A stretch of DNA of 64,000 bases from Actinomycetota bacterium (GTDB taxonomy: Bacteria; Actinomycetota; Acidimicrobiia; Acidimicrobiales; Acidimicrobilacustridaceae). The position numbers and the translations under genes are program-made. Of the stretch, positions 26,541-55,956 are shown one piece after another (the first letter of the stretch is position 1; every line of letters begins with the position of its first letter). The stretch lies in NCBI GenBank assembly GCA_026393455.1, contig JAPLAE010000097.1:9458-73457 (forward strand), read 5' to 3'. The notes under the pieces are model-generated. The model had not been told where the DNA came from. It saw only the letters and a program-made list of their open reading frames with translations, and did not search any database.

Positions 26541-26813
26541 TCAACTCTGCAGCGCGTCGGGCCCATCGAGACCACCATCAGGTTCCCGCTGCGCTGCTGC
26601 GCCATTGTCGTAAACCACTGGCCCGATAATATGGAAACCTTCGCCGTCTTCAATAATTCGAGGCTCCGCTGTTCGGGGAGCCGACGGCAACAGCGTGCCC
26701 GAGTCGATCGCCATCCGTTGGATCGGCTTCGCGCCGCGACGCTTTGACAGCGCCAATTCAATTGCGACTCCCACGATGAGTCCTACAACGATGACGAGAA
26801 CCGCGATGGCCAT
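26541..26813 (-). CDS. Small single-pass membrane protein, hypothetical (90 aa)
   Basis: N-terminal hydrophobic helix followed by KRR; TACAAT -10 lies 5 nt upstream of the ATG; fills the gap between the giant gene and alaS. Confidence 0.65.
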   Translation of the reverse strand: MAIAVLVIVVGLIVGVAIELALSKRRGAKPIQRMAIDSGTLLPSAPRTAEPRIIEDGEGFHIIGPVVYDNGAAAQREPDGGLDGPDALQS

Positions 26814-26888: not shown

Positions 26889-29800
26889 CTAGTCGCCGAG
26901 AACTGGCTCCAGTTCAGGACTCGCCAGACTCCCCTGCTCCCGGCGCCGAGCGAGAATACCCGCCCCAGCGCCAAGGAGAAGAAGGATCAGACCGAGCGCC
27001 ACAAAGGCCACGACGTCGTTTGAGCCCGTGTAGGGCAGTAACGATCCTGGCGTCGCAACCGGCGTTGTCCCGAGAGATGTGTCCGGTGCTTCCGGAACCG
27101 CAGTGCCCTGAGGAGTAACCGGGGCCGAGATCGAAGGTGCCGCTGAACCAGCCGCGTTCGATGCCGTCACTCGATAAAGAACCGCAACCCCATTTTCCAA
27201 TGGAGCGTCTGTCAAAGATATTCCCGAAGTTGTCGCGACGGTCTGCCAGGTGAGTCCACCATCGAGTGAGCGCTCAACCAAATAGGAGACGGGACTGCCA
27301 CCGTCGCTTACCGATGGTTCCCACGCAAGCGATGCCGAACCATTACCAGGTGTCGCCACGGGAGAGACCGCAGGACTTGGCGACGATGATGCAACCGCAG
27401 CAACCTCTGCCCACGGACTATCTCCTACGACGGTGTAGGACTGAACTCGGAACCAGTAGCGCGTTCCGGTCTGCAAGCCAGTCACGGTGAGTGCTGTTGT
27501 ATCCGCAAGACCTGATCCCATCGGTGACAACACTCCGGCAACTACATAGTTCGTACCGAGCGAGGTCACCATGGTCAAACTATCGATTCCAAGAGCATTC
27601 ATTTTGTTCGATGACACCGATATCGAACGACTCGCCGGAGCAATAGTGAAGACGTCGGGACCGAGTTGGATCGTGTCGGTCCACGTGGATCCGTTCAACG
27701 ATTGCTCGAGTCGGTAACCCACGATCGCAGCACCCCCGTCGTCAACTGGTGGAGTCCATTGAACTGTGATCTGACCCGGAGCACTTTGCGTACTTAAAGC
27801 TGCGGGGACAGTGGGTGGCGCAACTGGAGCTGCAGTCACCCACACGCTTGCTGCTCCGACACCTGCGGCGTTGACGGCCCGCGCACGGAAGACATAGGCG
27901 ATGCCGTTTACGAGACCTGCCACCATCGCCGATGGCGACATCGACGTAGCTCCGGTTTGCCAGGTGCGACCGCCGTCACGAGAAATCTCGACCACATAAC
28001 TCGTGATATTTGCTCCACCGCTCGAAGCCGGAACAGTCCATGTCAATGCAACCTGCCCATTACCAGACAGCGCTGCGAGACCAGTAGGAGCCGACGACGT
28101 CGTTACCGGAGTCGCTGAAGACGTGGACGTCGCTGACGCACCTGTGCCGATCGCATTTGTCGCTGTTACGCGGAATCGATAGGGAGTTCCGTTCGTGAGC
28201 CCAACAACGAGATAGTTCCGAACACTGACCGAAGATGCAGCGATCGTCCATGTCGATCCTCCATCAGGAGAAATCTCGACACGGTAGGAATCGCTGGCCG
28301 GAGCCGACCAAGACAACGCAACCTGTGCGTCACCCGACACCATGACCAGCGAGGTTGGCGCTGTCGGTGTCGCAGCAGGCGTTGCCGTCACCGGGGAGCT
28401 CGCCGCACCGCTTCCTGCCGCATTCACGGCAACAACACGGAATGCGTATGCGGTTCCATTTGTCAGACCAGTCAGCAATGCACCCGTTGTCGCTGTCGTT
28501 GTGGCCGTGGACCACGTGACGCCACCATCGGTGGATCGTTCGACGACATAAGAGGTGACCACAGCGCCACCATCAGAGGTTGGAACGGCCCAGACAAGGG
28601 CAGCAGTTCCATCTGACGCAACGGCGCTCAGGTTGACGGGAGCGGTCGGCGGAGTGCGAGGAGCAATCGCTCCCGAGAGTGAAACCGTCGAACCAGTACC
28701 AGCACCATTTCGTGCAGAGATCCGGAACCGATAGGTCGCTCCGTTCGCCAAACCGGAAACAACAGCCGAACGATCAGCCGTTGTGAGAACGATTTGCCAC
28801 GTTGACCCATTGTCCGTCGACTGTTCGATGAGGTAACTCGTGACTGTCAACCCACCATCGGTTGCCGGAGCGGCCCACACGATGGTGACGGAACCATCTC
28901 CTGCTGTAGCAACCGGATTCAGCGGTGCACCCGGAACCGTTGCCGGGGTTACTGATGTTGCCGAACTCGCGACTCCTTGACCAGCAGCGTTCACAGCGCG
29001 AACACGGAAGGCGTACGTGGCGCCGTTTGCGAGACCCGACGCAACTACCGATGTGCTTGCAGTTGTTCCGACACTTGCCCACGTGAACCCGCCGTCATTG
29101 GAGCGTTCAACCACGTAACCGGTGATTGAGGAACCACCATCGGTGACCGGAGCGGTCCACGCAATCGTTGCGGAACCGTTTCCAAGCGTCGCACTCAAAC
29201 TTGTCGGCGCGCCAGGAATCGAACGCGGTGTCACCGAAAGTGTCGCTGCAGATAATCCGGCTCCAGCGTTATTGAGAGCCGTGATGCGGAACTGCTCTGC
29301 CACTCCATTTGTCAGTCCGGACACCTGAAAGCTCGTACCGGTCACTGATGGAGAAACAACCGTCCAACCGCTGACTCCGAGTGACCGTTCGATGCGATAT
29401 CCAGTGACTGGACTTCCGCCGTCAGTCGATGGTGCAGCCCATGTGAGTAGCACCGTTCTGTCACCGGCGGTGGCGATCGGGCTTACCGGTTGTCCTGGCA
29501 CTGTCAATGGAGTTGCCATCGCAACCGATGACGAGGCTCCAAAACCTGAAAGGTTCGCAGCACGAACACGGAAGACGTAAACGTTTCCATTCGCCAAACC
29601 ATTCACCGTTGTCGTAAGTCCATTCACGGAGGGGAGCGGCGTCCACGATGCACCGCCGTCGAGCGAACGCTCCACGGTGTAACTCGTGATGGGGCTTCCC
29701 CCGTTGCTGACAGGAACAGTCCATGTCAATGTCACCGATCCGTCACCGACAGAGACACCTAACGATGCTGGAGCGCCCGGGACGGTACGAGGCGTCGCTG

Positions 29801-32800
29801 AAACGACGCCGCTTGCCGCACCTGTGCCGGCGGCATTGATAGCACTCACACGGAATGCGACCGCGGCGCCATTCGAAAGCCCTGGAACAAGCGCACTCGT
29901 GACTGCACTGCCGCTATTCGCGGTCACCGTCGTCCACGTGACGCCATTATCAGTCGAACTTTCAACGCGGTATCCGATGATCTGCGTTCCACCAGACGAA
30001 ACAGGAGCAGTCCAAGCAAGAGAAACCTGAGCATCGCCCGGCGTTGCGACAACTGCTGACGGAACGCTTGGCAGTGCGCCAAAGTTCGGCGTCGCGCTTG
30101 ACGACGTTGATGTGCCGCTACCAGCACCGCTGCGAGCGCTGACACGAATCGAAACTGGAGTTCCGTTCGTGAGGCCGCCCACTATCGCGCTGAGCGCAAG
30201 CGAACCAGAGCTCACCGCAGTCCAGGTGGTTCCATTCAGCGACTTCTCGACGATGTACTCGACGATCGGCAACCCACCGGATGAAACAGGAGGTGTCCAT
30301 GTCGCGACAACCTGACCATTACCAGCCGTCAACGCGAGATTGGTCGGGGCACCGGGAACAGATGCGGGAGTAGCAGGAACAAAGGAACTCGGAAGTCCGG
30401 TTCCAGCCGCATTGGTGGCGCGAACTCGGAACGCGTAGGGGATGCCGTTCACAAGACCAGCGATCGTCACTGTTGTTGTCACGCTTGTGGTACCAACAGA
30501 CCAGGTCGCTCCGCCATCAGCAGACGACTCAACGATGTAACCAGTCACTGCGGCGCCGCCATTTTGCGCAGGCGCAGACCACGACAGTTGCACCTGAGCA
30601 TCGCCGGCTACTGCCACTGGAGTGCCAGGGCGATTAGGAACCGCAGAAGGCGTCGCCGTCGCGATTCCACTTGTCGATCCGACACCGGCGAACGTGATTG
30701 CACTGACGCGCATATTATAGACGGTTCCATTCGTCAGGCCGCCGATGACCGCGCCGGTTGCGGGTCCGGCAGTCTCAACGGCAACGACCCACGTCGATCC
30801 ATTCGTCGAAGTTTCAATGCGGTAACCGCTAATGGCCGCTCCCCCATTCGCCACAGGAGCTGTCCACGTAAGTGACAGTTGCTGATCTGCCGACAGGGCG
30901 ACAAGGTTCGATGGGGCCGAAGCCAAGCCTCGGGGTTGCACAACAACCGGCACCGAAGTGATTCCGACCGTTCCAGCGGAGATCGCAGCTATGCGGAATG
31001 CATAGGCCGTTCCATTCGTGAGACCAGTGATCGTCACGGATGTTGCCGAGCTGCCGGTGTTGGAGCGCGAAATCGTCCACGTCGCACCACCATCGATCGA
31101 AACTTCAATCTGGTAGCCGTCGATCGGTGCTCCACCCGATCCCAACGGTGCAGTCCAACCAAGCGTGACCTGGCCATCACCAGGTGTAGCCGCCGGATTC
31201 GTCGGTGCACGATCAGAGCCAGTCGGAGGACCGAGAGGAAGTGCGATCGCGATATTTGATGGGACGGAACTGATGCCCGCAACGTTGATCGAACGAACTC
31301 GGAAACGAACTTCCGTTCCATTTGTGAGCCCAGTGATGCTTGTCATCAGAGCGGGATTCCCCGTATTCGGGATCGCCGTTGTCCAAGTGACGCCACCGTT
31401 GAGTGTTTGTTCAACTGCGTAACCAGTAATTGGTGCACCACCGATGACCACCGGCGCCGTCCATGCCAATACAACAGCAGCATCAAGTCCAACCGCGGTT
31501 AGTGCAGTAGGTGCATCTGGCGCTCGCATCGGCAGAACCGAAACCGGAGCATCTGACATTCCTATGCCAGCAGCATTCACCGCAGAGACTCGGAACGACA
31601 CAGGTACACCGTTCGTGAGACCTGTGACAACGGTTGAGGTCCCGGTGATTGTCGCAACCGTGGCCCACGCCCCACCCGAAACCGACTTCTCAACTCGGTA
31701 ACCAACAATTGTCGAGCCACCGTTCGAGACTGGAACAATCCAAGCCAACGAGGCCTGACCGTCTGCTGCAATTGCTGTGAGAGCTGTCGGTGTGCCCGGC
31801 GCACCAACAGGAACAGCAGAGACAGGATTTGCGGCGTTGGTATCAATCGCATTCACAGCGCTGACTCGGAAGACGTACGTTGATCCGTTCGTCAGTCCGT
31901 TCACTGTCGCCGAAAGCCCGATAACTCCTGTAGATGCAGTGGTCCAGGAGAGCACCGATGTGAGTCGGTACTCGATGATGTAACCGGTCAACGCAGAGCC
32001 ACCGTTCGACGCGGGGGCAACCCACGACAACAGAACTTGAGTGTCACCACCCAGAGCAGTGACAGCAGTCGGAGCACCTGGTCGTGAAGCAGGGACTGTC
32101 ACGACGGGAGCAGAAGCTGCACCCGCACCGACAGCGTTTACGGCAGAAACTCGGAACCAGTAAGCGGACCCATTCGTGAGACCCGAGATCGTCGTGCTTG
32201 TTCCAACAATTCCTGAAGCAACCATGATCCAGTTCAGCCCATCAAGCGAGCGTTCGATGTTGTACGCCGTAATTGCCGATCCACCATCTGTGGCGGGAGC
32301 GTTCCACGTCAGCAATGCAGCTCCATCACCAGGAAGCGGCATGATCGCCAGCACCGTGCCCGGAATCGTCGCGGGCATTGACGACGCCGTTGCGGACGCA
32401 GCGCCTACGCCGACGGCATTGAGAGCCGAAACCCGGACGACATAGTTCATGCCGTTCGTCAGGCCGCCAATCACTGCAGCCGTGACTGACGTGCCCGAGT
32501 TGGCAATAGCCGGCGTCCACGTCGAGCCACCGTTTGATGACAACTCGATCCGGTATCCCATGATCGGCGAACCACCAGTGTTCGTCGGCGCCGACCATGT
32601 CAGAGATATCGCTCCATCGCTTGGCGTTGCCGCCAAAGCGCTGGGTGCCCCAGGAACTGCAGCTGGTGTCGCAGAGGTCGAACTGGAGACAGCCCCGACT
32701 CCACCCGCATTTCGGGCTGAAACACGGAATACGTAAGCCGTTCCATTGGTGAGACCGGTCATCGAACGAGAAGTTGAGATCGACGCCGAATCAGAGACAA

Positions 32801-35800
32801 CGACAACCCAAGTGATTCCGCCATTGTTTGACTGTTCGATTCGGTAACCCGTAATTGGACTGCCGCCATCCGAGGTCGGCGCCGACCAACTCAGGACCAC
32901 CGAAGAATCACTTGGATTCGCCGCCAAAGCGAGAGTGCTCGACGCCGATGTGAACGGAGTAGAAGCCGTTGCCCCTGACGCAGTTCCCACTCCTGCTGCG
33001 TTTCGCGCGCTCACCCGGAAGGTGTAGGGCGTTCCATTTGTCAGACCGACAACCAAGGCAGTCGTCGCGGTTGTTCCCGTAGTTCCAATGACTTCAACCC
33101 AGTTGACACCAGAATCCGTCGAACGCTCAATGCGGTATCCAGTTATGGCCGCCCCACCGTTTGCCACAGGAGTCACCCATGAGAGGGCAACTTGCGTATC
33201 GCCGGCAACACCGGCCAACGATGTCGGAGCACCCGGCGTCGTGAATGGTACCGACGTGACAACCGCACTTCGAGCACCAACGAAGGTGCGAGAACTGGCC
33301 GAGTCCGATGTGATCGCGGCAACACGGAATGAATAGACCCAGCCACTCGTGAGGCCACTCACCGTGGCACTCGTTGTAGTGGTGAATGTGTCCGCCAACG
33401 CTGTCGTCCACGTGACGCCACCATCGACGGACTGCTCAACTTTGTAACCAGTAATCGGACGACCACCATCGAATACCGGCGCAACCCATGACAGCGCAAC
33501 CGAACTCGCTGCAGCGACCGCTGCTATTGCCGTGGGGGAACCCGCGCTCGTAAACGGAACCGCCGACATCGGCGATGAAGCCGCACCTACGCCACCAGCC
33601 GTACGCGCACTCACACGGAATGCATACGTGACGCCATTCGTGAGTCCACCGATCACCGTTGAAGTTGCAGTCGAGGCGGTATCGGAGATGAGAACAGCGA
33701 AGGTTCCTCCACTGGTTGAGCGTTCGATTTGATACCCAGAGATTGCGGCACCACCCGTATCGGTCGGCGCGGTCCACGAAAGACTGACCTGACCGTTATC
33801 TGGCGTAGCCAGAAGCCCAATCGGTGAAGCCGCAGCGCCGTATGGCGTAGCGGCAACAGAAGCGCCCGGAAGACCAGAACCTGCTGAAGTGTTCGCAGCA
33901 ACGCGGAACCCGTACGTCGTTCCATTGGTGAGAGCCGTGATGAGTCGAGTCGTTGCAGTTGAGCCGGTGTCGACAACCGCGACCGTCCACGAGACGCCGC
34001 CATCTGCGGTGACGTCAACGCGGTAACCGGTAATCGCCGACCCCCCGGTTGTTGCCGGGGCTGTCCAGGAAAGCGTTACCCGTCCATCCCCCGCTATTGC
34101 AGTGAGCAATGTCGGAGCAATTGAGACGCCTGTGGGCGTCGCCGTGGCAATCGTCGAGGCAACGCCAAGGCCTGCAGCGTTACGCGCCGCAACTCGGAAC
34201 TTATAGGCAGCGCCGTTCGAGAGACCAGCGATGGTGACACCAAGACCGCCGACCGAACCAGCCGCCACATTCCATGACAAACCATTGTCGCTTGACATCT
34301 CAATCGAATATGAGCTGACCGTGGATCCTCCATCGGAAGAAGGCGCTGACCAAGTAAGCGTTACCGACGTGTCCCCACCAGTTGCTACAAGCGTCGCTGG
34401 CGCAACTGGCACGGTGATCGGGGTGGTCGCTGTCGACGCACTTGGGACACCAGCACCACCGCTATTGATAGCGGTAACACGGAACAAATACGAGGTTCCG
34501 TTTGTAAGTCCGGAAGCCGTAGCCATCGTTGCCGTTGACAACGTGTTGGCCACTACCGACGTCCATGTTGCCCCCGCATCAGTCGAACGCTCGATCCGAT
34601 ACCCAACAATCACGGAACCACCCGTAGAAGTCGGTGCAGTCCACGACAATGATGCCTGAGCATTTCCGGGTGTAGCGACGAGCGAAGTTGGCGCTCCAGC
34701 CAAACCAGCAGGTGTCGCTGACGCGACCGCGGACACGGTGCCAAGCCCAGCAGCGTTACGCGCAGTGACGCGGAATTTGTATGTCGTTCCGTTGGAGAGT
34801 CCGCCGATGGTTGTCGACAACCCGTTCACGGTCGACATAGCGACTGTCCATGTCGTTCCACCATTTGCAGACACCTCTACCTGGTAACTCGTCACCAAGG
34901 ATCCACCATCGGCAATCGGCGTCGTCCACGAAAGCGTGACTGCCGCATCGGAGGCAACTGCGGTCGGCGTCGCTGAGGTACTTGGAATCGTGTACGGCGT
35001 CGCTGATGCAACTGCCGATGATGCGCCGAGTCCGCCTGCATTTCGAGCGGATACTCGGAACGCGAAGTTCGCTCCATTTGTGAGGCCGGTCAGCGTTGTG
35101 GTGAGGCCGACAACCGATGCGGAAGCCACTGCCCACGTCACGCCTCCATCAGACGAACGCTCAACTTGGTACGTAGCGATCGCCGATCCGCCATCACTTG
35201 CAGGTGCCGTCCACGCAAGCACGACCTGTCCATTGCCAGGAGTGACGTTGATCGAGGCTGGGGCAGTCGGAGCACCGACTGGAGTGGCCGACGCAGTCGC
35301 CGAGAACGCACCGGATCCGAGTGCGCTCACCGCAGCAACGCGGAACGTTTGCGTGACCCCACCTGAGAGTCCAGTCAACACCGTTGAGGTCAGCGTGCTT
35401 CCGGTGCTGCCAACAGCAACAGACCACGTAACGCCGTTATCGGTCGATCGTTCAATGCGATAACCAAGAAGTGCCGAGCCACCCGTACCCGCCGGAGCGG
35501 TCCAGGAAAGCGAAACCTGACCGGTACCGGCAGCAGCAACAAGATCAGTGGGCGCTCCCGGGGCAGCGAATGGTGTTGACGTCACTGCTCCTGAATCCGG
35601 ACTGAACCCTGCAGCATTCTGCGCAGTCACTCGCACGGTCACCGGACTTCCGTTCGTGAGGCCGGTGATTGCAAGCGAAGTAGCCGTCGTCGTGGTCACT
35701 GTCGTCCACGTCGCTCCCCCATCAAGACTCTGTTCAACGCGGTAGCCCGTCAAAACTGAACCGCCGGTAGAGGTGGGTGCCGACCACGACAATGAAATTT

Positions 35801-38800
35801 GGCTGTCGCTCGGAGTGACAGTGAGCGAACGCGGTGCACTTGGCGGACCAAATGGCGTTGTGGTGGCAGGCGTTGAACTGGCGCCTGCTCCAGGTGACGT
35901 GAGTGCAGAAACCCGGAATGAATACGCCGTTCCATTCGAAAGGCCAGCAACAGTGACCGACGTCGATGTCGTACCTGTATCGCTAATCGCAACGGTCCAC
36001 GAGGTTCCACCATTTGAGGAAATCTCCACGCGGTAACCGACGATCGACAGTCCACCGGTGGCGACAGGAGCTATCCATGAAAGTGTTGCAGTTGCATTTC
36101 CCGGCGTCGCGGTCAGCGCTGTCGGTGCAGACGCTGCAGTAAACGGCGTCGCCGTCACCGTCGCCGATGTAGTACCCGTGCCAGCAACGTTGATTGCCGA
36201 AACTCGGTAGACGTATGTCGTTCCATTCGTCAGCCCGGTCGAAACGAAACTCGTCGCCGATGACACTGTCGTCGCAATAGTTGTCCATGTAAGACCACCA
36301 TCGATTGACCGTTCAACGAGATAACCAGTAATTGCAGAACCACCAGTCGAGGCCGGGGCGGTCCACGACACGGTGACCTGAGTATTTCCGGCAACCGTCG
36401 TTACATTTCGCGGAGTCGTCGGAACCGAATACGGAGTCGCTGAGATTTCAGAAGATGCCGCGCCCGTACCGACTGCATTAACCGCGCGGAACCGGAACTT
36501 GTAGGTCGTGCCGTTTGTAAGTCCAGTCACCGTGACAGCAGTCGTCCCCAAGCCACTCGTTGACGGACCAGTGATCCATGTGGCCCCATTGTCGGCGGAA
36601 TACTCAACGAGATAGCCGGTAATCAGAGCGCCGTTATTCGAAGGAGCGGTCCACGACAACGTCACTTGGCTCTGTGCAGCCACTGCGGTCGGCGCGGTTC
36701 CGGCAAGCGGAGCACCCGCGGGGGTGACAAGCGCAACGTTCGATGGCGATGCGTCACCGGCAGCGGTGATGACAGTCACCCGGAAGAACACGGGAGATCC
36801 GTTCGTCAAACCGGCAACGATGGTTGAAAGCGCTGACGCTCCGAGCGTCGAACCAACCGTGGTCCACGTGGTCATGTTTGTAGAACGCTCGACTCGATAG
36901 CCGGTCACGTTGACAACGCCGACTGGCGCCAACCATGTAATCGTTGCCGTCGTGTCACCCGCCGCACCCGTAATGGTGATCGGCGCTGCAACCAATGGCG
37001 TTCCCGTTGCTGCAACCGATACTGCACCGGCTCCACCAGCGGTGATCGCCGAGACGCGGAACGAATAGAGCTGTCCAGGCTGAAGCCCCGACACCACCCC
37101 GTAGGTGCTCGGGGTAGCGGTGTTAGTAATGGCGATCGACCAGCTTGATCCGCCGTCAAACGATGATTCGATCTGATAACCGGTAATCGGCGCACCGCCA
37201 GTAGAAACTGGGGCGGTCCACGTGAGAACAACCTGCTCAGCACCTGCGTAGGTGGTGACCGCAGTCGGTGCTGCCGCACGAGCAGCCGGGACGCCTATGA
37301 CCGGAATACTCGAGATGCCCGTACCAAACGCGTTGACCGCGCTCACTCGGTACACGTAGAGAGAACCGTTCGTAAGCGATGCGTTATCGGAATAGGTCGT
37401 CGCCGTAAGCGATGTCGCGATCACCGTCCATGTGGATCCACCGTTCGAGGATCGCTCGACGGTGTATCCCAGAATTGAACTCCCTCCGTCACTGACTGGA
37501 GGAGCCCAGTTGATGGTCACTTGGCGGTCCGCCGGACTCGCTGTGACCACTGTGGGCGAGCCGGGGATGGTGGCCGGCGTAGCGCCGGCTGCCGCACTAG
37601 GCGACCCCGTCCCTCCCCTCGTGATTGCCGACACGCGGAATCCATACGCGGTTCCGTTGGTCAGACCAGAAATGACGCGCAGCGTCGTGGGTGAACCCGT
37701 GTCAGCCACGACCACTGTCCAGGTCGCTCCGCCGTCAGTCGATTGTTCAATCTTGTAACCCGTAATCGACGCACCGCCAGTAGACGACGGTGCTGTCCAT
37801 GAAAGGGCAACAGATGCATTGCCTGGCGAGGCCATCAACGCAGTCGGAACATCAGGAGCACCGTACGGAGTAACACTCAATGCCGCAGTCGCTATTCCGA
37901 CTCCTGCGCTATTGACCGCCTTCACCCGCAGCGCGACATCGACACCGTTTGTGAGTCCCACAATCGTGGCCACTGTGGCGCCACCAGTCGAGGTCTTCAC
38001 GACGGTCCATGTGGCTCCGCCATCACGTGAGAGTTCCACTCGATAGTCAGTGACTGTCGAGCCGCCATCGCTGGCAGGAGCAGTCCATGAAAGTGCGATC
38101 TGGCCATCACCCGACATACCCGCGAGTGAACGCGGCGCGGAAGGAGGACCGTAAGGCGTACTCGACACCGGAGCCGAGAATGAGCCGAGCCCTGCTCCCG
38201 TCAATGCTGCAATGCGGAACCGGTACTGCGTTCCGTTTGTGAGACCAGCAACAGTTGTTGATAGTCCGGTCGTCCCGGTCGTCGGAATCGCGATCGTCCA
38301 AGTAATTCCGTCAAGTGATTGCTCAATCCGATAGCCACTAATTGAGAAACCACCAGTACTCACTGGCGCCAACCACGTGAGCGTCACTGTTGACGCACCC
38401 GCTGTAGCAACAACACTGGTCGGCGGATCAGCCGCCGTTGATGGCGTCACCGATACCGACGTACTTGCAACGCTTTCGTAACCGCCTGAAAGGGTGATCG
38501 CACGCAACAACACTGGAACACCGTTTTCGAGCCCAGTGATCGTTGTTGTCGTGACAGTTCCAACCGTTGTGGCCTCAGACCACGAAGACCCACCATCAAC
38601 GCTGATCTCAACTCGGTAACCGGTAACTGCTGGGCCACCGGTTGCAACTGGAGCAGTCCACGTCAATCGCGCCGAACCGTCACCGCTTGTCGCGACAAGG
38701 GCAGTCGGCGGACCGGCCGGAGCATATGGAGTGGCCGATGCTGCAGAGCTCGGTCGACCCGTGCCCAACGAAGTCACTGCACTGACACGGAACGCATACG

Positions 38801-44800: not shown

Positions 44801-47800
44801 CAACCCATGACAGGTCAACGACCGAACTCGCGGTCGGCACGCCAGATGCCGATACCGCCTCGAGGGCAGTCAGCGCCAAAGGCGCGGCTGGCAGGCCATA
44901 CGGCATGGCCATCGCGATTCCGCCTGTGTAGTTGCAAGCGCCGGACGTGTACGTCGTCACGATTGTGCCCGTTTCGTCACAACCAGAGGTGACCGCCGAA
45001 ACACGGAACCAATACGACGTGCCATTCGCCAAGCCGGTGATGACCTGCGACGTCACATTTGGCGTGCCGGTGTTGCGCACAAGGGCGGTGAAGTACGCGT
45101 TGCCGTACGTTGCGACAGTCGGGCAATAGGCAACCCCAGCGGAGCAAACCTCGATCTCGTAACCCAAGATCGGGAGCCCGCCAGTCGTTGCCGGCGCGGA
45201 CCAGTTCAGTGTGACCCGAGCATCACCCGGAGTTGCCGACAACAACCTCGGTGCCGAAGCTGCGCCGGTAGGTTGCGAAATCGTGAGTGAGTATGCGCCG
45301 ACGCCTTGGCCGGTAATGCCAGCGATACGGAACAGATACACCGTTCCGTTTGTCAGGCCACCAACGGCCTGGGTCGTCGCCAAGGAGTTTGAGTTGGCAA
45401 CAACACTCGTCCACGATGCACCGTTATCGGTCGACATCTCAATTCGGTAACCGGTGATTGCCGTTCCACCCGTATTGACCGGCGCTGTCCACGACAATGC
45501 GACTTGGGTGTCGCTCGGCGTTGCCGTGAGACCCTGCGGCGACGAAGACAAGGAGAACGCTGTGGCCGAAACAACCGATGCTTTTCCGCCCATCGGAGTC
45601 ACACGAATGCCGTACGAAGTACCCAGTGTCAGACCACTCAACATGATCGATGTCGCCGTGTACGAGTTCGTTGAACTCGCTCCCGTCCACACCGTCCAGC
45701 CAGCCGTGAAGTTCGCGTTGTACTCAACGATGTAACCCTTAATCGGCGAACCGCCGGTATCGGCCGGCACATCCCATGTAACGAGAATCGACGAACCAAC
45801 GGGTGTCGCCACAAGGTTGCGGACAGGTCCAGGGTCACCAACTGACAGATACGAAATGATCGATGACGTTCCCGCTCCGGTGATGTTCAACGGAGTAATG
45901 CGAACCCATACAACGAGACCAGTCGGGTAGGCAGGAAGCGACGCGGTCAGAGCCGTCGTTGTGGTGACTTTAGTCCACGTGACTTTGTTGTCCGTCGATG
46001 TTTCGATCGTGTATCCGGTAATCGGCTTGCCGCCCGTATTGGTAGGTGCCGTCCACGCCGCAGTCGCGGTCCAGTTCGGAGTACCAGTATTGGTGATCTT
46101 GAGTTCAATCGGACCTGAAGGGGTTGCTGACGGAACCGCTGAAATCACTGCTGGTGCGCCGCCGGCAACGGCGACACCACCGGCCTGAGTCAGCGGCGTA
46201 ACTCGGAACCACGTCTCTGTTCCGTTCGTAAGACCGTATGCGGTGTACGTCGTTACCGTAGAACCAGTGTTCGCCGTTATGAATGTGTAGTAATTCGGCG
46301 CGTAGTAAGCCGCTCCGATAGGACAATTCGCGACACCGGTGGTGCATCGCTCAATTCGATAGCCAATGATCGGTCGACCACCCAGATCAGAAGGCACAGA
46401 CCAATTCAGCACGACGATGCCATCGCCCGGCGTTGCGCCAAGGCCAAGAACATTCGAAGCGGACGCCATCGGCGTTGCCGAAACAAGTGCAATCCCGCCC
46501 TCGCCGTTCGCCGTTAATGCTCGAACACGGAACCAGTAACTCGTACCATTCGTCAGACCATCGACGGTGATCGTGCCGCTCCTACCGGCATTACCCGAAA
46601 CAACCGTCCAACTCGCTCCATCAGTAGAGCGCTCGACACGGAATCCACTGATCGTTCCGCCACCAGTCACAGTCGTTGCTGCATTCCACGTGAGGGTTAC
46701 CTGACCATCGCCAGCTGCGGAAATTAGCGATTGTGGTGCGCCAGCAATGGTGCCGGGCAGCGAACTCACGACGGCGCCAACGCCTACTCCTGCGGCAGTT
46801 ATTGCCGAGATACGGAACCAGTAACTCGTGCCATTCGTCAGACCATTCACCATGTAGCTCGTCGCGTTGCTACCAGTAGATGCGGTGAGCACAGTGAAGT
46901 TCACCGTGTCGGATGCAACACATACAACCGCGCTCGTTGTACACACTTCGACGCGATAGCCAAGAACGGCCAATCCAGCCAACATCGATGGCACAGTCCA
47001 ATTCAGCGTGGCTGATCCATCCCCCGAAACAACCGAAAGTCCGCCTACAACACTGGCGGTTGCCAGCGGTCGAGCCGAGACGCTTGAGGCCGTGCCGACC
47101 CCACCAGCCGTCACTGCCGAAACCCGGAAGATGTACGTCGTTCCATTCGCCAATCCATTTACCGAATATGCAGTGAGCGTTGATCCTGTTGAAGCGGTAA
47201 GCAGCGTCCACCCTGTCGCTCCAACTGCTTGGTAATCGACCCTGTATCCCGTTGGCGTGACACCAGTCGGAGCGGTCCAAGAAAGAGCGACGGTTCCATC
47301 GCCCGGAGTCGCACGCAGCAGCGGTGAGCCGCCCACCTGCACGGTTCCACCAACTGTTGCCAGTGCTCCGGCGCCTACGACCGCAGCGGCAGTGATCGCC
47401 GAGACTCGATAGGTGTAATACGACGCTGCAACGACTCCTCGCATCGTGAACGTCGTCACCAAACCTGTGTTATCGACAACCGTGGCGAATACACCACCAC
47501 TGATCGATGATTCGATCTTGTACCCAATTACATCGCTGCCGCCGTTGCTGGCTGGGGCAGTCCATGAAAGAGAGACCTCTCCCACAGTGACATTTCTCCC
47601 AGCAGTCAGATTGGTCGGCGCCGAAGCACCGACGATCGGCATCACCGAAACAACAGCACCATCGCCATATCCAGCAACAGTGAGTGCAGAAACTCGGAAC
47701 CAAACTCGCTGTCCCGGAACCAGACCATTGATAGTTGCCGCTACCGAAGTGATACCCGTGTTTGGAGTTATGACTGACCAGTTGGCGCCATCGGTTGACT

Positions 47801-50800
47801 TCTCAACGCGGTAGCCAACAACACCAGCACTTTGGCTACTGACTGCAGTCGCAAGACCGTTGTCGACGGGAGCGCCCCACGACAGCACGACCTTTGCCGA
47901 TGTGCCTGGAGCTGGATTCAGCGCTGGGTATGGTGCGAAAATAGCAGGATCGCTAACCACCGCGGTAAGCAGTGTCGGAGGCGTCGCGATTGTCCACGGC
48001 GTGACTGCGACCGTCGATGACACCGAGCCACCATTCGTGCCATTGACGAAGGCTCCGACATTCGGCGTAAGCGGCGCACGGGTCGCAGTGACACTAAAGA
48101 CGTAGGTATTGCCGTTCACGAGTCCGTTGACGACGTACGTCATGGCGCTAGGCGCAGTGAGCGACGTGATCGCCGTCGGTGCAGCAGAGTTGGTGCTGTA
48201 GGTTCCGCACGACAGGCCAGAGCCAACAATGCAGTAACCCGAAACAAGGTACCCAAGGATCGGCAAGCCACCAGTTGAAATCGGTGCCGACCAGTTCAAC
48301 GTGACCTGGCCGTTCCCTCGAGCCGCGGTAAGCCCAACCGGACCTGTCACCTGCCCAAAGGGAACACTGCTTACGACAGCTGACGCACCTACGCCGACGA
48401 ATGAATAGGCCGAAACACGGAACTGGTAGGTCAAGCCATTCGAAAGCCCCACCGCGTTCCACGCAAGATCGTTTGTCTCGCCGAGGCGAAGCCATGTGGC
48501 TCCCCCGTCGCTGGATCGCTCGACTGAGTAGCCGGCGATATTGACCCAACCGATATTGGTCGGAGCAGCCCACAAAAGATCAATTTCACCGTCAGTCGAA
48601 ACCGTGCGTAGGTTCAAAGGCGCCGAGGGGACTGATTGCGGACGGGATTGAACACTCTGTGTCGTACCCATACCAGCGACAGTGACTGGAGTTACGTAGA
48701 AGGTGTACAACGAGCCATTCGTAAGTCCGGTCACCGTGTAATTCGTAGTAGCCGATCCCGTGTTGTCGGTAAGGATCACTCCGCCGAGTTGGATCTTGTA
48801 ACCGATGACCGGCGAGCCACCTGTATCGACAGGAGCGGTCCAATCAAGGCGCATCTGACCGTCACCAGGAGTGGTCCGAAGCAGTGAAACCGAGCCTCCC
48901 GTTGCCGAGTTCGGAGTCACCGAAACTGTGCCGCTCCATGCACCAAGCCCCATTCGCGTGATGAGCGCGACGCGGTAAAGATAGGTCTGCCCATTTACAA
49001 GCCCTTGGACCTGCAGAGCAGTCGTATTTAATTCGCTGGCGATGCATACCCACGTGACGCCGTTATCACTTGATTGTTCAACTCGATAAAAGGTTGATGC
49101 ATAACCGCCGTTCGAAACCGGCGCAGTCCAGTTCAGATACGCCCAACGGGAGGCATTCGAGTAGACCGAAACGCTTATGGGTGTGCTGGCAATCGTCGAC
49201 GGAAGCGCGAGAACGATCGCATCAGCGCCCGGACCCGAGTCAGTCACCGCTCGGACTCGGAAACTGTAGGTCGTTCCGTTCATAAGCCCGTTCATGACAT
49301 ATCGGGTTTCAGTGGTCCCGGCATTGGGCGTCAGAACATCCCATGCACCGCTATTTCCGACGCGACGATCAATGGCATATCCGAGAATCGTTGCTCCACC
49401 AAGAGAGGTTGGAGCAGTCCACGTAAGAGTGACGCTCGCGTCACCCGTGCTCGATGCAAGTTGACCCACAGCGCTCGCTGCCGCAAACGGTGAAGCAACG
49501 ACGACCGTCGGCGCTCCATCTCCCGCTGTCGTTAGAGGAGTAATGCGGAATCGGTATTGCGCACCGTTCACCAGTCCACGAAGCGTTACGCCCAATGTGG
49601 AAGGTGTCGCCGTAATCGCCAACGGAGTGATGACCTGCCAGTTAACGCCATCAAGGCTCTGTTCAATCCGATAGCCAACGAATGTTCCGGTGTTCGGATT
49701 CTGAACGGTTTGATTCGCCGCTGCCACAAGCGTCACCGAACCATTGCCGGGAGTCGCCGAAACCTGAGGGGCGGCAAGTCGAGCAAACGGAATCGCCGCG
49801 CCGATCGCCCCAAGAATGCTCGTGCCGACCGACGTAACCGTCGAGACTTTGAACCAGTAACTCGTACCATTCGTGAGACCTGTGACGGCGTAGGTGTTCG
49901 CAGCGGGGTCGGCCAATTGCGTCACTACTGTCCACGTCGAACCGTTATTAATGGACGTCTCAATCTTGTATCCGAGGAGCGTGCCGCCGGCGAGGGCCGC
50001 CGGAGCGTTCCACGTCAATGTCGCCGATCCGTCAGTTGCAACAGCATTGACGGCTGCAGGAGCAGCCGGTAGCCCGACCGACATTGCTGCGACCGTTGCA
50101 CCGAGGCTCAGTCCGTTGTAGTTCGTGACTGCCGAAATCCGCCAGGTGTAGCTCGTACCGTTCACCAAGCCAGTTGCAACATACGAAGTAGTTGTGACTC
50201 CTGAGTTCGCAGTGAGGACTACAAACGATGCATTTGATCCACCGCAAGCTCCGGTGCACTGTTCAATTTGATAGCCGAGGATCGCTATACCCGAAGTCAT
50301 TGTCGGTGCAGTCCACGAGACAGTCGCTGTTCCATCGCCGGCCACTGCCGACAAGGCCGTTGGCGCGGCGAACGGCGTTCCGGCAATCACCTTGATCGTG
50401 GAGGCCACAACTGTTCCGCTCAAGACGACAGGGGTAACGCGAACGAACTCTGACCAACCGGTGGTGAAACCAGTGATATCAGCGGTCAACGTAGTTTGTG
50501 ACGCCGAGATGACCGTCCATGTGGTGCCGTTCGACGAACGTTCCACCTTGTAACCCGCCACAGTCGACGCACCAACGACCGCCGGTGCTGTCCACGTAAC
50601 AGTTGCGCCAGTAGGTGTGCTCGTTGAAGAGAGGTTCTGGACCGCGCTCACAGCAGTGAGCGGCGGACCGGTGACAGAAACCACTGTTCCTGACCCAGTA
50701 CCAAAAGAATTACGAGCTGATACACGGAACAACGTGGCGACACCGACAGGCACACCATCAACCGTCGCAGTCGTCGCTGCGCCCCAGTTGCCGATGTACG

Positions 50801-53800
50801 TCCAGTTCACGCCACCGTCGGTTGACCGCTCGATGATCGAAACGTTGGCCGTACCGCCGACATCGGCGGGAAGTGTCCATGAGAGTGTGAGTGTTGCTCC
50901 GGCAAAGGTTCCCGTGAGACCGAGAGGAGCGCTCGGAACATTGCCTGGTAAAGCACTTACAACTGCGGTTGCGCCGGCGCCGGCGGCTGAAACGGCGGAA
51001 ACTCGGAAGTACATCGCCGTGCCATTCGTAAGACCAGTGGCAACATACGGCGAAGTTGCCGCAGTCGACAGAACCGACCATGTCGAGTTGTTCGGAGACG
51101 ACTCAATTCGATAGGCGGTGACGGGGAGCCCCCCCGTCGTTGCCGGAGGGGCCCAAGAGACCGTGACCTGAGAGTCACCGCCTGCTGCTTGGAGCGCTAG
51201 AGGCGCTCCAGCAGTTCCGGGTGGCGCACCACTCGTCTGCACAGGGACCGTCGTGGTCACGATTGAACCGGGGCCCACCCCGGCAATGTTCGTCGCTCGG
51301 ACTCGGAACGATGCCAGAGTCCCTGCAGTAACACCGTTTGGTGCCCAATTGAATGCCACCGCAGTTTGCGTTGAGGAAAGCATCGACCAGGTCGAACCAC
51401 CATTAAGCGAAAGTTCCACCGAATAGGTGCGAGCGATATCGCTACCAAGCACCTGCGGTGCCGCCCAACTCAACGTTACGTAGGTTGCTTGTGACGCCCC
51501 AGTGCCAACGACAAGTGTTGAAGCAGTGAGCGCATCAACGATGCCAGGGACTCGAACGGGTACAGCGGCCACTGTCGCACCGTTTGGATCGAGACCAGCT
51601 GCAGTGCGGGCTCGTAAACGGAAGTTGTAACTCGAACCGTTCGTCAACCCATTAATCGTGAACGACGTCGCCAATGGATCGATACTGCTATCGGCCAATA
51701 TTACCGGGGTCGCGCACCAAGGCGTGCAGTACTCAAGTTGATAGCCAGTGATCGCCGATCCGCCGTTTGACAATGGGGCACGCCAGGTAAGCGTGACGGA
51801 TCCGTCTGATGGAGAACTTGCCAGACCTTGCACAGCACTCGGCGTCGTGATCGGGGTACCCGAGATAAATGCTGGCGCCCCCGCACCCGCTTGTGTAAGC
51901 GCGGTAACGCGGAACTGGTAGTTCACCCCGTTAGTAAGCCCATAGGCGGTGTACGCCACCGTGCTTGCAGGAGTGAGCGGATCAGCAAGAGCCGTCCACG
52001 TCACACCATTGTCTGCAGACTGTTCAATGCGGTAGCCGATGATCGACCACGGACCACCCAGAGCGGTATTGCCGTTTACTTGTGGGGCAACCCAACTCAG
52101 AGCAATGGTCGAGTCGCTAGGAGTCGAAACGAGGTTGTAGGCGGCCGCCGGAGCCACATAGGGCGTGCCCAGCGTCTGCGCAGTCCATTCACCAACTCCG
52201 GCACTCGTGATTGCTGCGACGCGGAACCAAAGCGTGGTGCCATTGGTCAAGCCGGGAACGGTCACAGTGGTTGCAGTCGATCCTGAATTACCGAGAATCA
52301 CATACCAACCTGTCCCGTTATAACTCTGCACCTGGTAGCCAAGAATCGGCAGACCGCCGGTGCTTGGAGGAGCCGTCCAATTCAGAATAATTCGACCATC
52401 GCCTGCAGTTGTCGAAAGATTCTGCGGAGCCAACGGCAATGCATTCGGCTGGCCAGCGACGTACGAGTACTCGCCAACTCCGCGTGCAGTAACAGCAGCA
52501 ACACGGAATCGATACGTCACGCCATTCGTAAGGCCGCGAGCAATGAAACTTCCCGAATACTCAGTGGACTCAAGAACAGTCCAGTTCACGCCGTCGGCAC
52601 TCTGTTCAACCCGATAGCCGTACACCGTGTAGCCACCGTTGTAATTCGGTGCCGCCCAGTTGAGCGTTACCTGACGATCGGCCGCAGCGCTGGTGAACGT
52701 TGTTGGTGCAGTTGCTGTCCATGACACAAACGTGGCGGTCATGGCTCCGTTTGAACTTGCTACACCTGCGTCGGTGATCGCGCTGAGGCGGAAGTAGACC
52801 GTTGTGCCGTTAAGTAGGTTGGTCCAGTCGAAACTGGTGACGTTTGCTCCAAGCGTTGTCGCGTTAGACCACCCCGAAACGAAACTCGTGACGTTGTATT
52901 CAAGTTTGTACCCGAGAAGCGTGAGTCCACCGAGATCAGTTGGTGCACTCCACGTCAGGCGTGCTGTTCCCGACGCTGGCGACGTACCGGCGAAGTCGCG
53001 CGGCGTTCCCGCCAAACCAGATGGCATCGACTCGACAACTGCAGGTGAACCCAAACCGGATGACGTCAATGCGCGTATACGGAAGAGGTATTGCGATCCA
53101 TTGGTCAACCCGCGAACGGTGTACGTCAGACCACTAAGGAATCCGGGCGAAAGCATCGTCCAGTTCGCGCCATGATCATTCGATTGTTCAATCTGGTAAC
53201 CCTGCACGCGCATGCTGCCGAGTTGATTTGGCGCGCTCCACGCAAGGACGACCTGTTGATCAGAAGCGGTAGCGCTCAGGCCATCGGGCATCGACACAAC
53301 GAACGAACTGCCAACAGTGACCGTCGCCGATGCTCCGAGACCAGCCGCGGTGATCGCAGTCAGTCGGAATGTGTAGGCATAGGCATACGACGGAAGCTGC
53401 GCCGAAAATGCCGTGGCACTTCCCGGGATCGACGCGTTCACCACCGTCGTCGGCGTGCACACCAAACTGCTCTGACAACTCTCAAGTTTGTATCCAGTGA
53501 TTGGAAAGCCGCCGGTGTTGGTCGGCGCAGCCCACGTGAAACTGAACGTTTGATCTGAAGTCGTTACAGCGAAATCTCGCGGTGCAGTTGCAACCGTCGA
53601 TGCATTCGTTGAAGCAGTCGCCCACGAACCAACACCCATTGAAGTCACTGCGGCAATGCGGAAGACCATTGTCTGACCATCAGTGAGACCAGTCACCGTG
53701 AATGACGTTCCGATGCTGCCCGTGTTCGGCGTGAGCACCGTCCATGTTCCGCCACCGTTCACTGATTGCTCAACGCGATAACCAGCGACGGTGAGACCAC

Positions 53801-55494
53801 CGTTTAATGCCGGTGCCGTCCACGACAACTGCACCTGACCCGAAGCCGGATTACTCACAGCAAGAGCGACGGGAGGACCAGCCAACCCATACGGAGTTGC
53901 CGCAACTGCAGCACTCGTTGTTCCCGCACCTGCAGAGGTAATCGCCGTCACTCGGAACCAGTACGCGGTTCCGTTCGTCAGTTGTGTGGCCGTTGTAAGT
54001 CCAGTGACGAGGAACGCGGTCGATGCCGACCACGTGTTCGCAACCACCGTCGACCACGTGGGCGACGCGGCTGAACCATTGATTGAGGCTTCGACCTTGT
54101 AGCCGATAACCGCAGAGCCGCCGTTCGATGCAGGGGCTGCCCAATCAAGCCGAACCTGCTGATCGCCCGCAGTTGCGGAAGGAACCACTGCAGCGCCGGG
54201 AGCGTTGCCGGCCGCCTGCCAGTGAGTCTGAATACGCGCAGAACTCAGCGAACTTGCGTACACCGCAACCTGTGCGATCTTTCCTACGAAGTAGGCGTTG
54301 CCAGCGGTGCCTGTTGCATTATTGGCCTGCGCACCGATCATCTCGGGTAAGTCGAACGACGCCGGGTTGATTGCAAGCGAAACTGGCGAGCTCGCAACCG
54401 GAGCACCATTAACGAACAACACAACCTGCGAACCGTCATAGGACATTGCGACGTGAGTCCAACGGCCGGTGGGGATGATTCCACTGGCACTGTCCACCAG
54501 GACCCCACCCGGGAGGTAGGCACGGAGACCACCCCCAACTTGGGTGTAGAGGGCAAAGGCGTCTCTGACCCCTCGAGTAAATCATGTTGATGGCAGCAGT
54601 CGACGACGGGTTTACCCACGCCTCGAACGTGCTCGGGCCCGAAACGAACATCGGCGAGCGAGGCAGGAGGATCTGACTGCTCGTGCCGTTGAAGGTGGCG
54701 GCCGATCCGCCCAAGGGGGATGAGTTGGCAGCCCCGAAGGTCACCGCCGTGGGTGAGCCGTTGAGACCATTGCCCGAGGAGTCCACAGCGGAGGCCGCGC
54801 CGGCAGCTTCATCAAGCTTCCAGTAGCCCACGGGAGAGTCCGCTGCGACCGCGGCCGGGTAACCGCCAGCCGGAATCGGGACAGTCCCCTGGCCTGGGGT
54901 GAGCGGTGAACTCGCGTTGGTGCTCGGGGTGACCGTGGTCGACGAAGCGGGGCCGGTGCCGACCACGTTCGTAGCGGACACGCGCACGTAATACGCGGTG
55001 CCGTTTGTGAGTCCGGCGAGGGTGGTGGTCAACGCTGAAGTTGCGAGGACGGTTGCTGCGGTGCTCCACGCCGCGCCGTCGGTGCTCTTCTCAACGTTGT
55101 ACTGCGTGACGGCACTGCCGCCGTCGCTCTGTGGTGTGCTCCACGTGAGCGTGATCGTTGTCGAGCCGGGGGTGGCGGCAAGAGACAACGGTGCAGACGG
55201 CGAGGTTGTCGCCGCTGACGTTCCATAGGTAACTGACGGCGCGAACGAACCACCAGCCGACGATGTGCCGTAGCTCACCGTTGGTGTGATCGACGTATTC
55301 GCCGTTGCATTCGCGTCAGGGGTGGTTGACGCGTCCGCGGTTTGGGAACTCGGCGTTTCCGTCGAGTCCGATTGACTCGCCGTGGAGGCTGAAGCTGTTA
55401 ACGGGCGCAACGTTGCAGGGACCACCCCGGCCAGCAACGCGAACGCCAGCACAACCACAAGCCCACGACGTGTGGGTTTAGGTATCTGGAGCAC
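26889..55494 (-). CDS. Giant cell-wall-anchored fibronectin type III repeat protein with two LamG-like domains (~9,535 aa; one frameshift near 54565 joins ORFs 54436-55494 and 26889-54497)
   Basis: N-terminal signal peptide; 90 FN3 units (xLxWxAP...GY.VE...GLTNGTxYxFRVxA); two LamG/ConA-like domains; C-terminal LPYTG, TM helix and RRR tail. Confidence 0.92.
27024..27038 (-). other. LPXTG sortase motif (LPYTG)
   Basis: LPYTG-SNDVVAFVALGLILLLLGAGAGILA-RRR. Confidence 0.85.
27110..40200 (-). repeat. Proximal array of 45 FN3 repeats (~97 aa each)
   Basis: Hand count of the strand-B Trp motif in the translation. Confidence 0.85.
40218..40919 (-). other. Internal LamG-like (ConA-like lectin/glucanase) domain
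   Basis: ADSPLLWWRL...DASGN...FSMELWAKP...WTHVVATYDG...IYVNG...GSMSEVALYSGALS. Confidence 0.85.
40980..54200 (-). repeat. Distal array of 44 more divergent FN3 repeats
   Basis: Hand count (one unit lacks the Trp); frequent loop insertions and Cys pairs. Confidence 0.85.
54215..54862 (-). other. N-terminal LamG-like domain, split by the frameshift
   Basis: ADSPVGYWKLDE...DSSGNG...TFEAWVNP | FALY...WTHVAMSYDG...LFVNG...GKIAQVAVY. Confidence 0.85.
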
Positions 55495-55500
55495 CCGGTA

Positions 55501-55506
55501 AATCTA
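55501..55506 (-). promoter_or_regulatory. -10 element (TAGATT) of probable leaderless promoter of the giant gene
   Basis: TAGATT-TACCGG-GTG, 6-nt spacing. Confidence 0.55.
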
Positions 55507-55611
55507 AGGAATCGTCCGCATATTTGTTATTCGGGTACGCGTGTTTTGTGTTCTTAGCGACTTCAAGTCGTTTCAGAAAGACGCTCCATGAGGAACGCAG
55601 TTTCTCGAAAA

Positions 55612-55671: not shown

Positions 55672-55956
55672 TCAGAGGCCAGCGCGTTCGAGCTGTTTAC
55701 GAAGCAGCGCTTCTGCCTGCTTGCGGGTCTGCTTTGTGGCTTCGGCGTTGGTGCGCATCTCGCCCACAAAAGAAATTCCGCGATCAACCGCCACACGGAC
55801 CCCAGAATCGGCCAATTCCGCAGCGCGAACCGCAGCATCGGTCACGTTCTCGGGCAAATGACGCCGAGCCAGGTCACGAGCCCGCAGGTATCCGACCACC
55901 GTTCCGGTGACACCAACTGCCGTTCCGACAGTGAACCAAGTGACGCGTTTGAACAT
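55672..55956 (-). CDS. Small conserved actinobacterial membrane protein (DUF6167-like)
   Basis: MFKRVTWFTVGTAVGV N-terminus; coupled to the upstream DUF948 gene; family name recalled, not searched. Confidence 0.7.
   Translation of the reverse strand: MFKRVTWFTVGTAVGVTGTVVGYLRARDLARRHLPENVTDAAVRAAELADSGVRVAVDRGISFVGEMRTNAEATKQTRKQAEALLRKQLERAGL

Follow-up and report, generated by a model that had tools for sequence, protein, structure and literature searches.

Actinobacterial fibrillar adhesins follow a plan in which an N-terminal binding domain is borne on a stalk of repeats that ends in a C-terminal sortase anchor (10.1101/2020.12.07.414375; statements drawn from the reports cited here refer to the parts of these sources that were available). 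Here we describe a giant gene on the minus strand of contig JAPLAE010000097.1, from the Actinomycetota assembly GCA_026393455.1, at positions 26,889-55,494 of a stretch of 64,000 nucleotides that is called the window below. Like the Gram-positive fibrillar adhesins (10.1101/2020.12.07.414375, PMC9210967), its product combines a signal peptide, an N-terminal domain of binding type, a tandem stalk and a sortase motif, whereas it differs from them by a mass of about 0.94 MDa, 90 fibronectin type III (FN3) modules, a second head in the middle of the stalk and a host that lives free in lakes. Neither fn3 nor laminin is used as a word in the main text of either report, the domain lists of their supplements lying outside this comparison. 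This giant surface protein is real and conserved, had not been described before and is best placed among the fibrillar adhesins.

Titin, a second point of comparison, has super-repeats of 7 and 11 modules. Its A-band FN3 tandems (PDB 8q6t, 8g4l, 8bnq) resemble the stalk in module type, short linkers and a weak repeat pattern, and they gave both the best match of the stalk among solved sequences (E 9e-108 over five modules) and the best Foldseek match. By contrast, the giant protein is without Ig modules or a kinase, is predicted to be extracellular and wall-anchored and has a period of 2, the similarity being one of module type and not of orthology. Identity with titin was rejected, as the Pfam scan found no Ig I-set or kinase family and export and sorting signals are present. 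Ebh of Staphylococcus aureus is built from repeat types that differ from the FN3 array. This protein (about 10,000 amino acids, 1.1 MDa; PMC11573180) is alike in size class and cell-wall association, and differs as a host-binding protein of a pathogen. The giant-gene replacement island (GGR) of Polynucleobacter asymbioticus (PMC5644125) shares a planktonic freshwater host, a giant gene at a fixed site and exchange by recombination in the flanks; its host is Gram-negative, its anchoring is of another type and its exchange takes place within the species, whereas exchange here would reach across species and, inside the gene, affect the tip, the likeness being one of setting and mode of exchange.

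The domain order is signal peptide, FN3, laminin G (LamG), 44 FN3, LamG, 45 FN3, LPYTG, transmembrane (TM) stretch and RRR, and all features lie on the minus strand. The GTG start and a predicted signal peptide (residues 1-36; 55,387-55,494), read by eye from a basic N-region, a hydrophobic core and ASA, are 94% conserved in four genomes. They are followed by a Ser/Thr-rich linker recognised in the sequence and 79% conserved (55,204-55,386), FN3 module 1 (54,922-55,203; PF00041, E 2e-12, and own-repeat profile) and the outer LamG, or concanavalin A-like, domain (54,204-54,921; PF13385 in intact relatives). The outer array of 44 FN3 modules (40,983-54,203) leads to the mid-length inner LamG/concanavalin A-like domain (40,203-40,982; PF13385, E 2e-26, with a model and a fold search), and the inner array of 45 modules (27,108-40,202) to a poorly conserved Pro/Thr-rich spacer that is likely to span the wall (27,039-27,107). 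The LPYTG sorting motif (27,024-27,038) precedes the TM stretch (26,949-27,008), the RRR tail and the stop codon (together 26,889-27,008). Both arrays were delimited with a profile built from the protein's own repeats, which returned 91 matches, two of them the halves of a single module split by an insertion of about 55 residues, and thus 1+44+45 = 90 modules. This profile, PF13385 and TIGR01167 reproduce exactly the order and counts that the first-pass annotation had read from the letters, and the Pfam scan (fn3, Laminin_G_3) and the NCBIfam scan (LPXTG anchor) confirm the families. No RGD motif is present in the protein sequence.

As assembled, the gene is split. The minus strand of the window holds an open reading frame (ORF) of 9,230 codons (26,889-54,581) and, in a different frame and overlapping its start, a second of 355 codons from stop to stop (54,436-55,503) with the signal peptide, the Ser/Thr linker, one FN3 module and the first half of LamG; the length of 26,889-55,494 is not a multiple of three. 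The frame breaks inside the outer LamG domain, at an 8-base gap near 54,562. In all four runs, from four studies, a contig bridges the break and contains a further 8 bases behind 54,562 at full depth, a comparison made with contigs, which drop rare variants. Intact ORFs of 9,529, 9,538, 9,540, 9,536 and 10,114 residues occupy the same site in five genomes of the genus, two of them single-contig genomes. Because the contigs of these four runs and the ORFs of five relatives are in frame, the real gene is the one with the 8 bases restored, of 28,614 nucleotides and 9,537 residues (residue numbers below follow a translation of 9,536 positions in which three X stand for the break). The frame break is most likely an error of the present assembly, with a rare real or minority mutation as the possible alternative. 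The single 28.6-kb gene claimed at first pass thus exists in the bridging contigs and in the relatives, whereas the window itself shows two frames. A programmed frameshift or phase variation at the break was rejected as the principal explanation, as the four runs and all five full-length relatives are in frame.

The repeat array is not an artefact. Identity between modules averages 38% and reaches at most 62%, the longest DNA self-match is 66 bases at 82%, and run X1 covers positions 30,500-53,982 with three long contigs that show 0 differences at a depth of 9-10 (X1 is possibly the window's own sample and hence perhaps not independent). These values exclude the mis-assembled or collapsed repeat that the first-pass annotation had raised as a concern. 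Because the modules are only 38% alike on average and the DNA self-matches are short, the array is old and not an assembly loop.

Nearly all modules are joined by 0-3 residues. Divergence is greater in the outer array (mean identity of modules 35%), which is also richer in aromatic residues and contains 27 of the 29 cysteines, largely as close pairs; the inner array is more regular (mean 43%) with almost no linkers. In all six full genes, 28 of the 29 cysteines are kept; a disulfide pathway of the vitamin K epoxide reductase (VKOR) type was found in none of five genomes, in a search that covered the VKOR type and no other oxidases. Similarity is slightly higher between modules at even offsets than at odd ones (p 0.003 for the outer and 0.001 for the inner array), and the gene of G020 is longer by six modules, which form blocks of about two and about four; together these observations suggest that the array grew by two-module steps. 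A whole-gene duplication of LamG plus 44 FN3 was rejected, similarity at offset 44 being at the null level (p 0.81). A model of five modules (predicted local distance difference test score, pLDDT, 95) consists entirely of FN3 sandwiches with linkers of about one residue. It should also be noted that in each of the six full genes the penultimate module, 89 (window 27,400-27,700), is the one with the insertion of about 55 residues, whose centre varies; a cleavage or binding loop is possible at this position.

Both heads are predicted to have lectin-like folds. Besides the match of the inner LamG in the window, PF13385 recognised the outer LamG in two relatives (5e-23 and 1e-23). The model of the inner domain (pLDDT 78) had as its top fold match domain 4 of AbnA (PDB 5hon; Z 21.4, root-mean-square deviation 2.6 A over 196 residues, 23% identity), which it also matches by sequence (E 3e-5). 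Domain 4 of the Geobacillus stearothermophilus enzyme binds arabinan with a dissociation constant of about 8-11 micromolar (PMC9110388). AbnA domain 4 is thus a proven glycan-binding module with the fold of the inner LamG; it is part of an enzyme there, whereas the domain sits in a non-catalytic stalk here, and its Z score is tied within 1 with entries that are not carbohydrate enzymes. N-terminal binding subdomains of neurotoxins are among these, followed by sialidase lectin domains, pentraxins and CBM40. A toxin reading of the Foldseek list was rejected, as only the jelly-roll fold is common (10-18% identity) and the protein holds no toxin domain. The outer LamG lies near the N-terminus, away from the anchor, and its binding role is predicted.

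Regarding export and anchoring, the N-terminus carries an export signal by sequence and conservation, with a T-R-R-G motif that leaves Sec versus twin-arginine translocation formally open. The C-terminal signal scored 24.3 bits with TIGR01167 (cut-off 15.9) and 19.9 bits with PF00746, just under the cut-off of 20, and the motif is LPxTG in all eight relatives' C-termini seen (x being Y, S or Q), amid poorly conserved sequence. The window encodes no sortase, as had been stated at first pass, and a search of the genome gave two PF04203 matches outside it. One is an intact class E sortase (NF033747, 162.9 bits, cut-off 160) with the catalytic His, Cys and Arg, which are kept in all six genomes aligned. 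The other is without the catalytic Cys; it lies at G000:C37:5678-8938, beside a secreted-type protein of 511 residues that ends in VAYTG, a TM stretch and a basic tail. Sortase matches were found in all five relatives searched and, because one of these is without the giant gene, the enzyme is a general one. All six aligned sortases have Phe after the beta3 His (placed by motif and by alignments to other sortases, SrtE1 not among them), which fits LPxTG substrates. In comparison, Streptomyces coelicolor SrtE1 has Tyr there and prefers LAETG two-fold while still cleaving LPETG, a Phe-bearing sortase prefers LPQTG (PMC5148588), and a class E sortase of Actinoplanes seems to use LPVTG (PMC13251363). 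A genome motif scan revealed a single further clear LPxTG substrate, and no LAxTG candidate was convincing; the former is a frame of 724 codons (G000:C70:4093-6264) with predicted parallel beta-helix-like repeats, a Ser/Thr linker and LPTTG. The LPxTG signal and the intact class E sortase support the proposal made at first pass of a secreted, very long FN3 chain, predicted to be anchored by a sortase. A sortase-assembled pilus was rejected, as this is a single polypeptide, the window holds no sortase and both genome sortases fall far below the class C cut-off (in a genome that is 83% complete).

The distribution of the gene was surveyed in 34 genomes of the genus, one per species. It is present in 11, complete between the same flanks in six and cut by contig ends in five; 16 genomes have a closed empty site of 37-591 bases and five were not judged. 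The two other genomes differ: G016 has a gene for a wax ester synthase/diacylglycerol acyltransferase (WS/DGAT) filling the same site (L129:2206-3750), and G027 has a remnant (L130, G027:C3:18500-22000), consisting of the last 200 or so codons with a module and a half, LPSTG and the TM stretch, directly after the upstream gene. With a full gene, a remnant, an empty site or a WS/DGAT gene at one fixed site between conserved flanks, and a tree in conflict with these flanks (see below), the locus fits a replacement-type genomic island, in which content is exchanged by homologous recombination. No integrase or transposase was seen among the flanking ORFs, which were read without a family scan. The family was not found in 396 genomes of other genera of the order (E 1e-45, four candidates scored per genome), a search for full-length homologues gave two giants of unrelated architecture among 504 candidates, viral contigs gave only LamG-level matches of 22-32%, and plasmids gave no match at 1e-15. 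Other giant FN3 proteins, 29-36% identical to the giant protein, are encoded elsewhere in four empty-site genomes, namely one of 8,231 residues with 67 FN3 modules in G019 (G019:C21:5695-30387; L121, L122) and fragments of 2,300-5,400 residues in G023 (C161, L124), G011 (C42, L125) and G024 (C143, L123). This second family has beta-rich C-termini, with no LPxTG where the end was seen.

The giant gene is under strong purifying selection, the ratio of nonsynonymous to synonymous substitution rates (dN/dS) being 0.07-0.16 in 15 of 15 pairs and about 0.08 for the window copy against four relatives. Its history departs from that of its flanks. In a tree of flanking genes, empty-site genomes adjoin and lie inside carrier clades and, because of this placement, repeated loss, repeated gain or both would be needed. 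Between G022 and G015, dS is 0.50 in the giant gene and 1.65 in alaS and rarA, and the reverse holds between G022 and G020 (1.82 and 0.81). In approximately unbiased (AU) tests with six genomes, the giant protein rejects the flanking-gene clade G005+G015 (p 0.0017) and the flanking proteins reject the giant-gene clade G022+G012+G015 (p 3e-5); the groups were chosen after the tree and the dS values had been seen, and the reference tree rests on three flanking genes only. Between the isolates KE-4 and TE-7, whose average amino acid identity is 73.1% (PMC12381374), the giant protein is 88.6% identical, a value close to that of the most conserved enzymes of the flanks.

A sharp change inside the gene falls in the core of the outer LamG domain (about residues 276-425; 54,225-54,669), of which two types exist in the genus. 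Type A (G000, G022, G005, G015, G033, L151, L154) is 74-98% identical within itself and type B (G012, G020, L153, with L037 assigned by eye) 69-74%, whereas identity between types is 47-60%; the outer LamG is 92% conserved within a type. There are also two stalk types, and each core type is found with each of them. To either side of the outer LamG, G020 and L151 share 99% identity, compared with 55% in the core, and for G022 and G012 these values are 98-99% and 53%. Among G022, G012, G020 and L151, the stalk grouping is backed by 26 of 27 informative sites before the core and 263 of 263 after it, whereas the swapped grouping is backed by 22 of 27 inside. At the DNA level, identity between G012 and G022 falls from 84-100% to 51-59% over residues 276-425, and the inner LamG shows a weaker dip (75-79%). 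The alignments indicate that the outer core assorts independently of stalk type, and it is likely that the outer head and the whole gene have been swapped among related species. What appears new here is the combination of a patchy gene, a tree in conflict with its flanks and two tip types independent of two stalk types. Neither silent donor cassettes nor a spare core copy were found in five genomes, or in G000 by tblastn and, because no spare copy was found in those five, the donors were likely other cells. The sole other PF13385 match, a weak one, lies in a protein of 2,545-2,583 residues present in three of five genomes (G005:C1:758300, G022:C1:576508, G020:C23:84947).

Taken together, these results point to a long sortase-anchored fibrillar adhesin whose predicted sugar-binding heads would grip glycans on particles or other cells, a reading to which we give a probability of about 0.6. 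Attachment is the best-supported use because, outside the stalk, the protein has only domains with folds of binding type, positioned like those of fibrillar adhesins, and because the tip is the part exchanged. The chain would be exported by Sec, unfolded and N-terminus first, its modules would fold one by one outside the cell, and the class E sortase would cleave between T and G and link the chain to lipid II or the wall. An FN3 module is about 3.5 nm long, and 90 of them would give a fibre whose contour length could reach about 0.3 micrometre; one head would sit at its tip and the other at mid-length. Homologous recombination with DNA taken up from other cells might replace the tip core or the entire gene, and so alter the ligand or the recognition of the cell. 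A bolder version, offered tentatively as a possibility, is a one-gene, one-chain substitute for a pilus in planktonic lake Acidimicrobiia, that is, a titin-like fibre of 0.3 micrometre with two lectin heads and a tip core cassette traded between species through conserved flanks. If this were true, the exchange of about 450 bases within a gene of 28.6 kb would let a streamlined oligotroph retune adhesion, or recognition by phages or grazers; such tip variation would pass from cell to cell and need no silent donor copies.

Several points weigh against the adhesin. The gene is dispensable, because it is absent at a closed site in 16 of the 34 genomes, and the copy in the window carries a frameshift in the present assembly. 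The LamG fold is common to pentraxins, sialidase lectin domains, phage tailspikes and the neurotoxin binding domains with tied Z scores, so the fold alone shows no ligand. The five-module model has a predicted template modelling score of 0.64, the relative module angles being unsure and the extended shape only predicted. RNA runs X20 and X21 gave only chance pieces of 18-39 bases, and the organism was not clearly in those runs. Finally, escape from phages or grazers would account for the variable tip as well as a new ligand would. This last point leads to a wall-anchored protective brush or spacer, whose long neutral chains would hold off phages or flagellate grazers, or a phage receptor or decoy, whose tip is swapped to escape recognition. 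A shield explains the tip exchange equally well and suits the low charge of the protein (7% D/E/K/R, compared with 25% in 11 housekeeping proteins, and 63% A/G/S/T/V); the scattered occurrence of the gene and the swapping of its alleles at one site recall the GGR of planktonic Polynucleobacter (PMC5644125), and among the carriers are planktonic oligotrophs in which neither pili nor flagella are annotated (PMC12381374). A passive brush, however, needs no two lectin-fold domains at fixed positions, the outer one so well conserved within a type, and a protein O-mannosyltransferase (Pmt) that could provide a glycan coat had 0 matches in G000 and G022 and weak GT-C matches (E 4e-7 or worse) in three other genomes. 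The brush is regarded as less likely than the adhesin, and O-mannosylation by Pmt as unsupported. A serine-rich repeat or O-glycosylated adhesin was likewise rejected, as the body is FN3, the flanks are housekeeping genes and there is no clear Pmt.

Less probable still is a nutrient-capture line, on which the heads would hold dissolved or colloidal polysaccharide near surface enzymes and transporters without lasting attachment. The closest fold is that of a carbohydrate-binding module of a glycan-degrading enzyme and the host lineage is oligotrophic (PMC12381374), whereas no catalytic family passed in the Pfam or NCBIfam scans of the protein, the neighbours, as read from translations, are not sugar uptake or hydrolase genes, and the tip would be far from any transporter. 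It is also very improbable that the window copy is a decaying pseudogene or that the protein is shed instead of kept at the wall. The frameshift would fit decay, the remnant in G027 indicates that the gene does get deleted, and the variable insertion in module 89, near the wall, might be a cleavage site. Against this stand the in-frame form in the four runs, the lack of any stop in the remaining 9,230 codons, the low dN/dS of the window copy and an LPxTG motif that is kept while x varies. We retain the adhesin as the preferred reading.

All parts of the protein belong to known families and the mechanism is not new; the surprise lies in scale, host and tip exchange. The first-pass annotation had spoken of an undescribed system, which is not supported, as the fibrillar adhesin plan exists and so do unnamed FN3-array proteins of 3,000-3,800 residues with LPxTG signals in metagenomes (P0042, 32 FN3 and LPITG; P0050, 27 FN3 and LPKTG). 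These and two further metagenome proteins, P0038 and P0006, share the FN3 module type; P0006 is 43-44% identical over 1,420 residues including LamG. Metagenomes commonly encode long arrays of this module type. Among the best 150 metagenome matches, many of which are probably fragments, three have a sorting signal, two have LamG by our own profile and none has both, the largest having 63 FN3 modules. No description of the giant protein was found in the literature covered, most subscription papers and unseen supplementary tables lying outside it. In the one paper found to use the genus name (PMC12381374), 'giant' and 'sortase' are absent from the main text and 'fibronectin' and 'giant' from four supplements. 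Two surveys of giant proteins, in the parts available, report LPXTG adhesin domains in giant proteins of actinobacteria, and archaeal giants with LamG, and do not mention this architecture. Notable are the size in a streamlined lake bacterium, the second head in mid-stalk and, as the most telling feature, the likely passage of tips and entire genes from one species to another. Lake bacteria with streamlined genomes are usually pictured as bare, free-living cells, whereas in this lineage 1.3% of the assembled genome is taken by one strongly selected surface protein, which seems to be gained, lost and fitted with new tips. If the adhesin reading holds, the gene would offer a handle on particle attachment or predator avoidance in abundant freshwater Actinomycetota, with carriers, non-carriers and two tip types for comparison, and a clean case of the export and anchoring of a near-megadalton chain through a predicted class E sortase. 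Tests are feasible, since the gene occurs at loci recorded under the pure cultures KE-4 (L032) and TE-7 (L034), its first 3,963 residues being in one frame in both.

The host assembly is of 2.28 Mb with 57.5% guanine plus cytosine. Where a habitat is given for DNA runs containing the stretch, it is freshwater or riverine, and the host is a freshwater member of the Acidimicrobiia. The flanking genes of KE-4 are 87-97% and those of TE-7 76-90% identical to those of the window, from which we infer that the host belongs to the genus Acidimicrobilacustris. KE-4 is A. europaeus and TE-7 A. thunensis (GTDB F1-20-MAGs160); both are slow-growing oligotrophs, and flagella and pili are not annotated in KE-4 (PMC12381374). 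The neighbours are rarA, alaS and ruvX-, mltG- and aro-type genes, read from translations and mostly not scanned. On the upstream side, a small conserved gene without a Pfam match (55,672-55,956, minus strand), located after rarA and a DUF948-like gene, forms the left anchor of the variable site. On the downstream side, before alaS, lies an ORF of 90 residues with a hydrophobic N-terminus (26,541-26,813, minus strand), which has no Pfam match and is conserved, also at empty sites; it is absent in a subgroup whose site measures only 37-91 bases.

Upstream of the gene, on the same strand, a conserved element CGAATAAC (55,526-55,533) is found in 13 of 13 loci, and TAGATT (55,501-55,506), a likely -10 box, lies six bases before the start codon with hexamer and spacing the same in all 13; ATG replaces GTG in two of them. 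Because of these upstream elements and of the ATG for GTG in two loci, the position of the start codon is considered fixed, and the arrangement suggests a leaderless promoter and mRNA. A sigma-70 scan at the TAGATT region found no full promoter. A motif resembling GACAC-AAAA is present upstream of the promoter (window 55,535-55,560) in most relatives; GACAC is the WhiA motif. Elsewhere in the window, a gene for an A24 prepilin peptidase lies at 20,674-21,360, between aroE and aroC-type genes, despite the lack of pilus annotation in KE-4.

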